A stretch of 64,000 bases of DNA from a bacterium (GTDB taxonomy: Bacteria; Patescibacteriota; Minisyncoccia; Phycocordibacterales; UBA9973): positions 1,738-65,737 of the forward strand of contig JAIXRY010000006.1 in the NCBI GenBank assembly GCA_027484965.1, written 5' to 3'. Made by a program: the position numbers and the translations under genes. This document shows positions 1,738 to 61,422 of this stretch, piece by piece; positions within the stretch are counted from its first letter, which is position 1, and every line of letters starts with the position of its first letter. The notes under the pieces are model-generated. The model saw nothing but the letters and a program-made list of their open reading frames with translations. It did no database searches and was not told where the DNA came from.

Positions 1738-4700
1738 ATGGAGTATATGAAAAAAGTGGAAACATATAATCATTTAAAGATAGAGAAAAAGTGGCAAAAG
1801 TTTTGGGACGAAAAGAAAACTTATCAAACTCTCTCTGTAGACAAGGCAAAGGTTAAAGGGCTTAAACCTTATTATGTACTTGATATGTTTCCGTACCCAT
1901 CTGGAGCAGGTCTACACGTAGGCCACCCTCGTGGATATATTGGATCTGATGTCTTTGCTCGCTTCAAAAGAATGCAAGGATTCAACGTGCTTCATCCAAT
2001 GGGATTTGACTCATTTGGTCTTCCCGCTGAACAATACGCCATCAAGACAGGGAAGCACCCAGGTCCATTTACTGATTCTCTTGTAAAAAAATATAAAAAG
2101 CAGTTAGAGATAATTGGTTTCTCTTATGACTGGTCACGCGAAGTGGAGACACATTCTCCAGAGTATTACAAATGGACTCAATGGATATTCTTACAACTTT
2201 ATAATAGTTATTATGATACAAAGAAAAACAAAGCAGAGAGTATTGAGACTTTGATAAAATATTTTAATAAAAATGGAAACAAAGATTGTAATGCTTTCAC
2301 AAATGATAGTGCAATTTTCTCAGCGCTTGAGTGGAAGAATTTTACTGAAAAAGAAAAGCAGTATGTGCTCATGAGTTATAGACTTGCGTATGAAGGATAT
2401 GCAGAAGTAAACTGGTGTCCGGAAATGGGAACAGTTCTTGCAAACGATGAAATCATTGAAGACAAAAATGGAAATATGGTTTCTGAGCGCGGAGAATATC
2501 CCGTAGAAAAGAAAATGATGCGTCAATGGTTCATGCGAATTACAGCATATGCAGATAGACTTATCTCAGGTCTTGATGAGATTGATTGGTCTTCTTCTAT
2601 AAAACAAACTCAAAAGAATTGGATAGGGAAATCAGAAGGTTCAGAAATAACTTTCTATATTGAAGATAAAGAATTTGGAAATTTTATTAGTAATGTAGAT
2701 ATATTTACAACACGTGCAGACACCCTCTTTGGTGTTACATATATAGCACTCGCAATTGATCATCCAATTGTTGAAAGACTACTAAAAGAACAAATTACTA
2801 ATTGGGATCAAGTATATACATATATACAAGAAGTAAAAAAACAAGAAAAAAATGATCTAAAAGAAATCACAGGCATAAAACTTGAAGGTATTGTAGCGAA
2901 GCAATCATTTTTAGATATTGAAATTCCTATATATTTAACTAATTATGTTCTTTCAAATTATGGTACAGGTGCAGTTATGGGTGTTCCTGCACACGATGAA
3001 CGTGATTTTAAATTTGCAGAAAAATATGATTTACCTATACAAGAGGTAATCATTCCTTCGGTTATAGACCTCTCAAACCCTCCACAAAAAGGAAAAGAAA
3101 CAAAAACAAGAAATACAGTTCATGTTATTGTTTATAATAAAAAAACAGATTCATTTTTAACTTTACGTTGGAAAAAATTTGATTGGCATACAATTGTACT
3201 TGGAGGTATAGATGATGGAGAGGATGTTATTAATGCTGCTCTTCGAGAAGTCAAAGAAGAAACAGGGTATTCAAATCTTTTATTTAAAAGAATTCTTGGT
3301 GGAAAGATTGAGGCAAAATATTTTGCAGCTCATAAGAATGAGAACAGAACAGCTATAACAACTGGAGTTTATTTTGAGTTGATTGACGAAACAAAAGTTG
3401 ATATTTCTCAAGAAGAGAAAGATAATTTTGATATTGAATGGGTTAAATCTTCAGATTTTTTTACAAAGAAAATGACTAATTCAGAGCTACCTTTCTGGAT
3501 TGAAAGACTACAAAAAGGAAAAAATGAAGCTTTTTGTGATTATGGAACATTAATTAATTCAGGTGACTTTGATGGTATGGATTCAGAATATGCTCGTACA
3601 AAAATTACCGAAAAGGTTAAAGGAAAAATTGTTACCAAGTACAAAATGCGTGATGCAATATTTGCACGCCAAAGGTATTGGGGTGAGCCAATACCGCTTA
3701 TTCACACAAAAGACGGTCTCATTGAAACTGTAAAAGAAAAAGACCTTCCACTTGAACTTCCAAAAGTAAAATCTTATCAACCTAGCGGTAATGGAGAGTC
3801 ACCACTTTCAAGTGTGTCTTCTTGGGTTAAATCTGGTTATGAGACTAATACAATGCCTGGTTGGGCTGGGTCTTCTTGGTACTTCTTGCGCTATATGGAT
3901 CCAAAAAATAAGAAAGAGTTTGCAAGTAAAGAAGCTCTTTCATATTGGAAACAAGTCGATATGTATATAGGTGGAACAGAACATGCAACAGGTCACTTGC
4001 TCTACTCACGTTTTTGGCACAAATTCTTAAAAGATATTGGATATGCAAAAACAGAAGAACCATTCAAAGCTCTTAAAAATCAAGGTCTTATTCTTGCTAC
4101 GGATGGAAGAAAGATGAGTAAGCGCTGGGGTAATGTTATTAATCCAGATGAAATAGTGAAGACTTATGGAGCAGATACTCTTCGTGTGTACGAAATGTTT
4201 ATGGGCCCATTTGAAGCATCTCAACCTTGGAATACAGAAAGTATTATTGGGTCACGTCGCTTTGTTGAGCGTGTATTTAGACTATCGGTTAGTGTGTTAG
4301 AAAATAATATAAAAGTTTCAAATAAAGAAAGTTTGAGAGCTCTCCATTCTATTATTGAAAAAGTTACGAGTGATATACAAAATTTTTCTTTCAATACTTC
4401 TATTTCAGGAATGATGATTGCTCTTAATACTTTTGAAAAAGAAAATCAATTATCAAAAAATGATTTCCTAAAATTCCTCTCACTTCTCGCACCTTTTGCT
4501 CCACATATAGCAGAAGAGTTATGGAATAAATTTGGACAAAAGGGAAGTATTCACACTTCAGTATTTCCAAAAGCTGACAAAAAATATTTAGCACAAGAAG
4601 AAGTTATTATTCCTATCTCAGTAAATGGAAAAGTTCGTGCGGAAATAATAGTTTCTCCAAAAATTTCACAAGAAGATATAGAAAATATTGCAATAAATAA

Positions 4701-4785
4701 CGAAAAAGTGAAGGTGTGGATAGAGGGAAAGGAAATTAAAAAATTTATTTACGTACCTGGCAAGATTGTGAATATAGTCATTTAA
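1738..4785 (+). CDS. leuS: leucyl-tRNA synthetase with an inserted Nudix hydrolase domain inside the CP1 editing domain
   Basis: HIGH motif (PYPSGAGLHVGHPRGY), KMSKS (KMSKRWGN), CP1 landmarks TTRADT and GTGAVMGVPAHDERD, and the anticodon-binding C-terminus. About 145 extra residues (aa ~455-598) contain a perfect Nudix box GGIDDGEDVINAALREVKEETGY. Confidence 0.9.
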   Translation: MEYMKKVETYNHLKIEKKWQKFWDEKKTYQTLSVDKAKVKGLKPYYVLDMFPYPSGAGLHVGHPRGYIGSDVFARFKRMQGFNVLHPMGFDSFGLPAEQYAIKTGKHPGPFTDSLVKKYKKQLEIIGFSYDWSREVETHSPEYYKWTQWIFLQLYNSYYDTKKNKAESIETLIKYFNKNGNKDCNAFTNDSAIFSALEWKNFTEKEKQYVLMSYRLAYEGYAEVNWCPEMGTVLANDEIIEDKNGNMVSERGEYPVEKKMMRQWFMRITAYADRLISGLDEIDWSSSIKQTQKNWIGKSEGSEITFYIEDKEFGNFISNVDIFTTRADTLFGVTYIALAIDHPIVERLLKEQITNWDQVYTYIQEVKKQEKNDLKEITGIKLEGIVAKQSFLDIEIPIYLTNYVLSNYGTGAVMGVPAHDERDFKFAEKYDLPIQEVIIPSVIDLSNPPQKGKETKTRNTVHVIVYNKKTDSFLTLRWKKFDWHTIVLGGIDDGEDVINAALREVKEETGYSNLLFKRILGGKIEAKYFAAHKNENRTAITTGVYFELIDETKVDISQEEKDNFDIEWVKSSDFFTKKMTNSELPFWIERLQKGKNEAFCDYGTLINSGDFDGMDSEYARTKITEKVKGKIVTKYKMRDAIFARQRYWGEPIPLIHTKDGLIETVKEKDLPLELPKVKSYQPSGNGESPLSSVSSWVKSGYETNTMPGWAGSSWYFLRYMDPKNKKEFASKEALSYWKQVDMYIGGTEHATGHLLYSRFWHKFLKDIGYAKTEEPFKALKNQGLILATDGRKMSKRWGNVINPDEIVKTYGADTLRVYEMFMGPFEASQPWNTESIIGSRRFVERVFRLSVSVLENNIKVSNKESLRALHSIIEKVTSDIQNFSFNTSISGMMIALNTFEKENQLSKNDFLKFLSLLAPFAPHIAEELWNKFGQKGSIHTSVFPKADKKYLAQEEVIIPISVNGKVRAEIIVSPKISQEDIENIAINNEKVKVWIEGKEIKKFIYVPGKIVNIVI

Positions 4786-60915: not shown

Positions 60916-61422
60916 TTATTTAAAAAATTCCAAAGACAACTCTTGTCCTCTTTTTATTATAGCGTCTCCTATTTCTCCCCAATCAAAATAATTTTTATAT
61001 TCTTTTATATCTATAATTTTTATTTCTGTAATTCCACCCGCTGGATCTTCTATGAATTCTCCAAATGGTTCTACTTTTGCAGATACCCTGAGTTGGTATA
61101 TAGGTTCTTTTCCTTCTGTTGTTACTTTTTGATATCCAATAGGTATGAAGTCCAACACCTTCATATTGGATTCTTCTTTTATTTCACGAAGAAATGTTTC
61201 TTCAATAGTCTCTCCCTTCTCTATAGATCCACCGATAAGACCCCATGATTTTTCATGTCCACCAAACCAACCAAAACCAAAAACTATTTTGTCTGGTTCT
61301 GTAAAACAAACTCCATAGACTTGCTTCACTCTTTCTTGTGGAAGATCGTTTAAATCATCACATTCGTGATATTCAAAAGTATATTCTATTCCTTTTTTGT
61401 CTATAAATTTTGATGTGATCAT
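60916..61422 (-). CDS. NUDIX hydrolase
   Basis: Nudix box GGSIEKGETIEETFLREIKEESNM (GX5EX7REUXEEXGU). Confidence 0.7.
   Translation of the reverse strand: MITSKFIDKKGIEYTFEYHECDDLNDLPQERVKQVYGVCFTEPDKIVFGFGWFGGHEKSWGLIGGSIEKGETIEETFLREIKEESNMKVLDFIPIGYQKVTTEGKEPIYQLRVSAKVEPFGEFIEDPAGGITEIKIIDIKEYKNYFDWGEIGDAIIKRGQELSLEFFK

Follow-up and report, generated by a model that had tools for sequence, protein, structure and literature searches.

The gene considered here, leuS, lies at 1738..4785 on the plus strand of a 64,000-nucleotide (nt) stretch of contig JAIXRY010000006.1 (GenBank assembly GCA_027484965.1; Patescibacteriota, lineage UBA9973). We refer to the whole of this stretch as the window. 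The gene is a single uninterrupted open reading frame (ORF) of 1015 amino acids (aa) encoding a bacterial-type leucyl-tRNA synthetase (LeuRS), and its product scores 896.7 bits against the NCBIfam equivalog model TIGR00396 (leuS_bact), for which the cut-off is 548.4. Within the editing domain of this enzyme there is an in-frame insert that we predict to be a complete Nudix hydrolase.

The leuS gene and its inserted Nudix module

The LeuRS landmarks listed in a first-pass annotation of the window, which a model had made from the DNA letters and their translations, were all located in the product. These included the HIGH motif of the aminoacylation site, which reads HVGH (aa 60-63, 1915..1926), the sequence RQRYWGEPIP at aa 644-653, and the KMSKS-type motif KMSKR (aa 792-796, 4111..4125), all three found by sequence inspection. 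The two editing-site motifs were aligned with those of Thermus thermophilus (Tth) LeuRS: the Thr-rich TTRADT (aa 324-329, 2707..2724) corresponds to Tth TTRPDT, and GTGAVMGVPAHDERD (aa 409-423, 2962..3006), which includes the conserved Asp residues, corresponds to GTGAIMAVPAHDQRD. The CP1 editing domain is in two parts, which like the other features of the gene are on the plus strand. Its N-terminal part (aa 293-440, 2614..3057) is delimited by Pfam PF13603 and by the alignment with Tth LeuRS up to residue 363. Its C-terminal part (approximately aa 599-640, 3532..3657) runs from LINSGDFDG to KYKMRD, leads back to the catalytic core, and is delimited by the alignment from Tth residue 374 onward and by a second PF13603 stretch. 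The PF13603 match (177 bits for the domain in total) is broken into these two stretches, the first of which (aa 293-444) covers profile positions 1-146 of 185, and the Nudix domain lies between them. The aminoacylation and editing motifs of LeuRS (HIGH, KMSKR, TTRADT, and HDERD) are untouched by the insert.

The whole inserted module occupies aa 441-598 (3058..3531, plus strand) and comprises a leader, SVIDLSNPPQKGK, the Nudix fold, and a C-terminal helix. By phmmer, residues 215-439 of the window enzyme align with Tth LeuRS 147-363 and residues 596-789 with Tth 374-581, and therefore some 146-155 residues stand in for a CP1 loop of approximately 10 residues (Tth 364-373). This loop is inside CP1, after the helix-strand downstream of HDxRD and before the "NSGxFDG" strand, in agreement with the nesting in the editing domain, after the HDxRD helix, that the first-pass annotation had described. 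The coordinates given there (3100-3532, aa 455-599) were essentially right, but the full unit is somewhat longer at its start. The distance of ~30 residues from HDERD given there is not exact, with the unit beginning ~18 residues and the Pfam NUDIX core 34 residues downstream of that motif. We set the boundaries at aa 441-598 because free-standing homologues, among them the proteins P0150 and P0143, have the same "IDxSNPPxxGK" leader and C-terminal helix. The module is homologous along its full length to such free-standing proteins, which are 160-200 aa long, and a hidden Markov model (HMM) of the module scores 166-167 bits on the window insert. At its two boundaries the sequence reads ...IIPSVIDLSNPP... 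and ...ERLQKGKNEAFCDYG..., and GC content is unbroken across the insert (0.30-0.32).

The core of the insert (aa 457-579, 3106..3474) matches the Pfam NUDIX profile PF00293 with an E value of 8e-13 (49 bits) in the whole protein and 3e-14 (53.6 bits) in the excised segment, well over the gathering score of 21.1. The Nudix box, GGIDDGEDVINAALREVKEETGY (aa 489-511, 3202..3270), is the metal-binding catalytic helix, and it fits the pattern GX5EX7REUXEEXGU at every position; its catalytic Glu residues are intact, as had been claimed for it. Among 45 homologues, G489, G490, and E508 are invariant, and E504, E507, T509, G510, and Y511 are at least 90% conserved. Downstream lies a family-specific motif, YFAAHKNENR (aa 528-537, 3319..3348), in which an aromatic residue is followed by H-K and N-R pairs. 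This aromatic residue, Y528, is 17 positions past Y511, the end of the box, and Y or F is kept here or at the next position across modules; an aromatic residue (Tyr) some 16-18 positions past the Nudix box, with basic residues after it, is reportedly a signature of RppH and of hydrolases of diadenosine tetraphosphate (Ap4A). In 81 modules inserted at the same site as in the window (site A, below), this motif is at least 90% conserved, as are R458, the GG pair, E495, RE, EETGY, H532-K533, N536-R537, and W568.

The ~155-aa segment is, on these sequence features, a whole Nudix pyrophosphohydrolase module whose metal-binding box is intact, set in a surface loop of CP1. As CP1 is itself an inserted domain, the arrangement is a double nesting. 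The module is apparently catalytically active and under purifying selection for catalysis.

A full-length LeuRS model (AlphaFold2 [AF2], 45-sequence alignment) had a mean predicted local distance difference test score (pLDDT) of 90.7 and a predicted template modeling score (pTM) of 0.83. The pLDDT was 89-95 across the Nudix region and also high in both linkers, and the best fold match of the model in the PDB was E. coli LeuRS-tRNA (5omw; TMt, 0.83). Modeled alone (pLDDT, 92.6), the module takes the canonical alpha/beta/alpha sandwich of Nudix enzymes in the predicted structure, and its top TM-scores by Foldseek were for the Aquifex Ap4A hydrolase 3i7u (0.77/0.86) and E. coli RppH (0.75). In a PDB sequence search, the top match was the lupin Ap4A hydrolase, and the decapping effector AvrM14 gave a full-length match. 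The PADLOC defense-system models gave no family at E≤0.01. The module thus resembles enzymes of the Ap4A hydrolase/RppH type (aq_158, 3I7U; RppH, 4S2W and 6VCK; lupin, 1F3Y) in its alpha/beta/alpha fold, in a length of ~135-160 aa, in its box, and in the aromatic residue ~17 positions past the box. It differs from them in that identity is 15-20%, in its own leader and AHKxxNR motif, and in being internal to a synthetase rather than a free enzyme.

The host, for its part, is similar to the bacterial LeuRS of E. coli and T. thermophilus (4AQ7, 5OMW, 2BYT, and 1H3N) in the Rossmann core, the HIGH and KMSKS motifs, a CP1 at the bacterial position with Thr-rich and HDxRD motifs, and the anticodon-binding and C-terminal domains. 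In addition to the 155-aa Nudix module at the Tth 364-373 loop, the window enzyme has a further lineage-specific segment of 58 aa (aa 157-214, window 2206-2379) that has no counterpart in T. thermophilus LeuRS, gives no Pfam match, and is partly helical in the AF2 model. It also lacks the leucine-specific domain, as Tth 581-637 is without counterpart between aa 789 and 792 (window 4105-4125), and the Zn-binding cysteines that the Thermus enzyme has in its ZN-1 and ZN-2 modules (including window 2380-2560).

Spread of the fusion, insertion sites, and possible mobility

An exhaustive phmmer search with the insert returned 371 cluster representatives (50% identity) at E≤1e-3 and 184 at E≤1e-10, and most of the top 150 matches were LeuRS with the module embedded. 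A word-indexed search with the insert alone gave one match; it was the exhaustive search that gave the family. With aa 400-700 as the query, the word-indexed search found ~30 LeuRS fragments carrying both PF13603 and PF00293, from sources that include Moraniibacteriota, Berkelbacteria, Saccharibacteria, and "Patescibacteria group." In GTDB, with one genome per species, relatives of the module are encoded at 508 loci or more. We checked the best 80 of these for embedding, and in 78 the module lies in frame between the N- and C-terminal parts of LeuRS. By these matches, the LeuRS-Nudix fusion occurs in Patescibacteria genomes of several hundred species or more. Public metagenome data contain it in abundance, and its scarcity is one of the literature, not of nature. 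Public annotations name these proteins only "leucine--tRNA ligase," "class I tRNA ligase family protein," or "NUDIX domain-containing protein." Full-text literature searches, with most subscription journals outside their coverage, found no described LeuRS-Nudix fusion, in line with what had been supposed, and the AARS Online paper does not mention one. Several Patescibacteria-like LeuRS-Nudix genes (L004, L007, L014, L023, L034, and others) are labeled "uncultured Gammaproteobacteria," "Candidatus Fimivivens," or "Woesearchaeota archaeon"; these are probably mislabeled or mis-binned metagenome-assembled genomes.

The module is carried at four sites of LeuRS. Site A, as in the window, accounts for 124 modules, site B, at the CP1 entrance (~aa 280-285), for 14, site C, directly before TTRADT (~aa 306-319), for 4, and site D, in the ZN-2 region (~aa 657-702), for 3. 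Most LeuRS of 900 aa or longer are single-copy (97 of 112); 11 carry two modules and 4 carry three. Two types of module can be told apart. Type 1, to which the window module belongs, has the canonical box and a "YFAAHKxxNR" motif; in type 2, Gln replaces the Glu of GX5E, the Arg of RE is lost, and the motif "FYHVPKxxNRFAHF" is present. Full-length LeuRS yielded 139 modules, of which 119 retain both the Glu of GX5E and the Arg of RE and were counted as type 1, 10 belong to type 2, and 10 are other variants. Type 2 modules persist at sites A, B, and D and are frequent as the second or third copy of multicopy LeuRS.

Co-resident copies are only 22-50% identical to each other and are not mutual closest relatives, and type 1 modules at site B are 66-77% identical to site-A modules of other hosts. 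Distances between modules and distances between their hosts nevertheless covary (Spearman correlation, 0.37; none of 999 permutations reached the observed value), with the module diverging somewhat faster than the host (p-distance, 0.57 versus 0.49). Presence is patchy as well: site A is empty in the close relatives P0024 (79% identical), P0022 (69%), and P0073. The largest LeuRS we saw was L009, a stop-to-stop ORF of 1735 aa. Two Nudix modules occupy its site B and a third its site A, and it has further inserts of 186 aa at site C and of 226 aa near aa 697. L009 and L011 share 82% identity in the N-terminal core but only 50% across CP1, which suggests a mosaic or recombinant origin for L009. 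A LeuRS fragment on a 1.7-kb metagenome contig, P0016, is 90% identical to window aa 598-1015, and the 95 aa upstream of its site-A junction are unrelated and give no Pfam match; either this is a different cargo in a near-identical host, or leuS is split there.

The insert is not an assembly artifact, because the same boundaries between LeuRS and module are seen again in 78 of the best 80 loci from species genomes; with GC content also continuous, an assembly chimera, which the first-pass annotation had named as an alternative, is ruled out. An intein is likewise ruled out, as had been argued from the in-frame, contiguous sequence: the junctions lack the Cys/Ser/Thr plus His-Asn residues of an intein, and Pfam gives neither a Hint nor an intein match at E≤1. 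Inteins in essential genes are similar in being in-frame, domain-sized insertions in a conserved housekeeping protein and in their patchy distribution, but the window insert has neither a Hint fold nor splice-junction residues, and its conserved enzyme fold is predicted to remain in the mature protein.

Two observations could still be taken as signs of an artifact or selfish element, be it an assembly chimera, an intein, or a recent transposon-like insertion. One is an exact 13-nt direct repeat, ACAAAAAGGAAAA, that flanks the module in frame on the plus strand (left copy, 3084..3096; right copy, 3510..3522, 426 nt or 142 codons downstream), each copy encoding QKGK. The other is P0001 (249 aa), in which an unrelated 70-aa N terminus runs into the Nudix box at its midpoint and LeuRS sequence follows, and which has the appearance of a chimeric or mis-called fragment. 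Around 84 other modules, however, flanking repeats averaged 7.55 nt, compared with 7.47 nt in shifted controls, and we dropped a transposon-like insertion with target-site duplication on the strength of this lack of excess. For the same reason, the repeat around the window module is probably due to chance. Given also the recurring junctions, the continuous GC content, the missing intein features, and the covariation of module and host, we attach practically no probability to an artifact or selfish element. It is also worth recording that recombination between the two 13-nt repeats would cleanly remove the Nudix module, and that an exact-sequence look-up had neither the window LeuRS nor P0001 on record.

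Free-standing relatives and other cargo of synthetase genes

Free-standing copies of the module adjoin aminoacyl-tRNA synthetase (aaRS) genes in 6 of 11 contexts, where chance would put a random gene beside an aaRS gene in ~5% of cases by a rough estimate only. In one of them, 2 nt separate the end of P0228 from the start codon (ATG) of a leuS without an internal module (L094:3451-5303; L095:492-3217), and this arrangement is the split counterpart of the LeuRS-Nudix fusion, a Rosetta-stone pattern. Another copy, P0150, lies upstream of a 951-aa leuS with a module of its own, likewise at a distance of 2 nt. The remaining four copies are one in L062, 300 nt upstream of a ValRS-like gene; P0163, 13 nt past argS and upstream of an IleRS containing a His_Phos_1 domain; P0146, one gene upstream of ProRS; and P0174, 15 nt past proS. 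An aaRS neighbor is absent for P0171, P0194, P0261, and P0265. As the module is fused to the synthetase in many genomes and adjacent to it in others, a functional linkage is indicated.

The 643-aa archaeal-type ProRS beside P0146 (L088:2762-4693) itself contains the same module, which the LeuRS-derived HMM finds at 161 bits, between the anticodon-binding and C-terminal domains. ProRS-Nudix fusions are rare, with only P0262 and P0221 found further. From these relationships, the window module is the local copy of a Nudix subfamily tied to aaRSs in Patescibacteria.

The window holds two free Nudix genes of its own, both on the minus strand, which the first-pass annotation had correctly noted and had read as repeated use of Nudix modules in this lineage. 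The gene at 1-519, GGHVSGEETYDDNAIKEVAEEIGI, runs off the window start and scores 13 bits with the module HMM, and that at 60916-61422 scores 25 bits, in both cases over the box only. By these scores, the two belong to subfamilies unrelated to the LeuRS insert, and they therefore say nothing about the module. A recent duplication of a neighboring Nudix gene is ruled out by the same comparison, the insert itself scoring 167 bits. The gene at 1-519 lies in a stretch of higher GC content (0.38) with negative GC skew relative to its surroundings.

Nudix is not the only domain found at these places. Other in-frame domains occupy the same loops of related LeuRS (L001, L029, L041, L066, L061, P0135, P0186, P0222, and P0253). 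These include PF06821 Ser_hydrolase/alpha-beta hydrolase domains at sites C and D (near window aa 308-331 and 657) and also at ~aa 612, a PF13419 HAD_2 domain inside the ZN-2 region (near aa 699), and a PF01725 Ham1/ITPase domain (186 bits) in the anticodon-binding domain (near aa 879). A 133-aa insert in the LeuRS P0157 has no Pfam match. Because Ser-hydrolase, HAD, and Ham1 domains occupy its permissive loops, patescibacterial LeuRS appears to be a hub for small hydrolase insertions, of which Nudix is the commonest seen here. An IleRS-like gene of at least 1184 aa (L085:5094-8498) has a histidine-phosphatase domain (PF00300) inside it. It is in the same cluster as P0163, along with argS, a thymidylate kinase, a zeta-toxin-like gene, another Nudix gene, and dUTPase.

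Possible function and significance

Dinucleoside polyphosphates are a universal side product of aminoacyl-adenylate chemistry. Our tentative preference, for a reading that we hold to be short of probable, is that the tethered Nudix module clears a synthetase-linked nucleotide by-product such as Ap4A. The module would then add to the synthetase a tethered, independent active site that takes no part in amino acid proofreading, and it would hydrolyze a nucleotide pyrophosphate arising at synthetases. The likeliest substrates would be dinucleoside polyphosphates (Ap4A, Ap3A, and Ap4N), by-products expected to arise from enzyme-bound aminoacyl-adenylate and ATP or another nucleoside triphosphate (NTP), and the products would be reusable mononucleotides. 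Tethering to LeuRS would bring coexpression and proximity, presumably without precise channeling because the insertion site varies. Ap4A clearance, one of the roles that had been put forward for the insert at the outset, is plausible in that it fits both the linkage to aaRSs and the closest folds. Ap4A comes mainly from aaRSs and is broken down by Nudix enzymes, RppH and aq_158 among them (PMC10148737). These two Ap4A degraders are the best structural neighbors of the module in the Foldseek search with the AF2 model, and this analogy points weakly to Ap4A as the substrate.

Several lines of evidence weigh against this interpretation. Fold and sequence searches cannot tell the substrate apart, and the NCBIfam models of individual Nudix enzymes give scores far under their cut-offs: 19-28 bits against cut-offs of 116-259 for RppH (PRK00714 series), 36.2 bits against 103 for NudB (NF006961), over the box region only, and similarly low for NudE. 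To our knowledge, LeuRS is not a strong Ap4A producer, as LysRS and PheRS are, and ArgRS makes none. The module is dispensable for LeuRS function, because it is missing in relatives at 69-79% identity. As for the free-standing copies, P0143 lies co-oriented and 4 nt past fpg/mutM, and this, like the dUTPase, thymidylate kinase, and Nudix neighborhood of P0163, is a hint of pool sanitation of the MutT kind. Finally, unrelated hydrolases are found in the same LeuRS loops, which favors a reading as generic cargo. On the sequence, then, function may be assigned only at the level of a predicted active Nudix pyrophosphohydrolase tethered to LeuRS.

Generic house-cleaning cargo is the main rival of Ap4A clean-up. 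Here the module would be an active sanitizing or salvage enzyme (for example, for oxidized or noncanonical NTPs, as with MutT) with no mechanistic link to aminoacylation, sitting in an essential, constitutively expressed gene of a reduced genome, as LeuRS loops tolerate insertions. We regard this as possible, if on the doubtful side. Beyond the PF06821, PF13419, and PF01725 domains carried in frame at the LeuRS loops, the His_Phos_1 domain of an IleRS, and the neighborhoods with fpg or with dUTPase, thymidylate kinase, and a second Nudix gene, it can draw on the patchy presence of the module among close relatives and on the lack of a fixed geometry, which follows from four insertion sites and one to three copies. 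It has more difficulty with the near confinement of the subfamily to aaRS genes or their neighbors (78 of the 80 best loci embedded; 6 of 11 free copies adjoining), and with the fact that the module is unlike the usual free Nudix genes in these genomes, with both of those in the window unrelated to it. The MutT model TIGR00586 gives only 12.3 bits, against a cut-off of 97.9. A role as a pyrophosphohydrolase or decapping enzyme for RNA 5' ends (RppH/NudC-like), delivered to RNA by LeuRS, we hold to be unlikely. It would act on the 5'-triphosphate or Np4A/NAD-capped ends of precursors of tRNA(Leu) or of other RNAs bound where CP1 faces the acceptor stem. The place of E. coli RppH among the top structural matches (TMq, 0.75) and the full-length match of AvrM14 are in keeping with this, and phosphate binding could fall to R458, H532, K533, and R537, which are conserved and basic; the four sites of insertion in LeuRS are all, we assume, in the connective-peptide region facing the tRNA acceptor end. 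However, RNase P leaves mature tRNAs with a 5' monophosphate, the RppH models score as low as noted above, and the insertion point in ProRS, at the junction of the anticodon-binding and C-terminal domains, is far from the acceptor end.

Less probable again is a noncatalytic module serving as a nucleotide sensor, an allosteric regulator, or a structural or RNA-binding appendage of LeuRS. Type 2 modules, which persist at sites A, B, and D without the GX5E Glu and the Arg of RE, and which often make up the extra copies of multicopy LeuRS, would suit such a role, but the window copy is type 1 with every catalytic residue present, and 86% of modules (119 of 139) keep the Glu and Arg. It is very improbable, to our minds, that the module proofreads amino acids by destroying mis-activated aminoacyl-adenylates (Nva-AMP or Ile-AMP) released from LeuRS. 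The module does sit in the editing domain, and its hosts and neighbors LeuRS, ProRS, ValRS, and IleRS are all editing synthetases. Nudix chemistry, though, targets pyrophosphate bonds, and an aminoacyl-adenylate is an acyl-phosphate without a pyrophosphate, so its hydrolysis, which the first-pass annotation had entertained, is chemically unlikely. In addition, the canonical LeuRS editing site is intact, leaving no editing function to replace, and the module is also found outside CP1 and outside LeuRS. A mechanism linked to the editing site, also suggested early on, finds no support for a similar reason: the family occurs at four LeuRS sites, in the class II ProRS, and as separate genes beside aaRS genes, and with its position varying in this way, docking at the editing pocket is unlikely.

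Enlargement of aaRSs is a recurrent evolutionary theme, as with the M. penetrans MetRS and its ancillary domains (PMC13215547). Synthetases with extra domains, such as the IleRS with an N-acetyltransferase domain of NCBIfam NF040702, are similar to the window LeuRS in that an essential class I gene is enlarged by fusion. The window differs in that the domain is a Nudix, that it is inserted within an inserted domain rather than appended, and that in the family it has several alternative sites and copy numbers and alternates with other hydrolase cargos. In a 2026 survey of domain insertions (Protein Sci; PMC13114784), PF13603 is "insertion-exclusive," with zero cases as a host. CP1 is likewise inserted in the catalytic core here, but it hosts a Nudix domain, and does so in hundreds of species. 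Each of the two component families was already known; what appears to be new is their nesting, together with an aaRS-specific Nudix subfamily and its multisite, multicopy behavior. A broader proposition is that patescibacterial aaRSs, above all LeuRS, are hubs for interchangeable in-frame catalytic cargo (Nudix, Ham1/ITPase, HAD, and alpha/beta Ser-hydrolase) that a domain-mobility mechanism adds, removes, and shifts among permissive loops, and that the Nudix module couples aminoacylation to the turnover of a nucleotide by-product or alarmone such as Ap4A. We put this forward as a conjecture that is more doubtful than not.

Few enzymes of translation have been studied as thoroughly as LeuRS, which is also a validated drug target. 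The 2026 survey describes the LeuRS editing domain as always inserted and never a host; this lineage is a wide exception, with an apparently active predicted pyrophosphatase built into that domain in hundreds of uncultivated Patescibacteria species. Even if the module were mere cargo, there would remain to be explained the four sites, the one to three copies, the swapped hydrolases, and the ~66-77% identical modules at different sites and in different hosts. Together with the patchy presence among near-identical hosts, this pattern of sites and cargo points to an unexplained in-frame mobility of domains in essential genes of reduced genomes, and the LeuRS loops may offer natural permissive insertion sites for protein engineering. 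If the Nudix module does act on synthetase-derived dinucleoside polyphosphates, this would be the first aaRS to carry an enzyme that degrades its own alarmone by-product, and it would give a handle on Ap4A biology in organisms without de novo nucleotide synthesis. If the hub and the coupling to by-product turnover are both real, these proteins would make up a previously unrecognized, widespread class of bifunctional synthetases.

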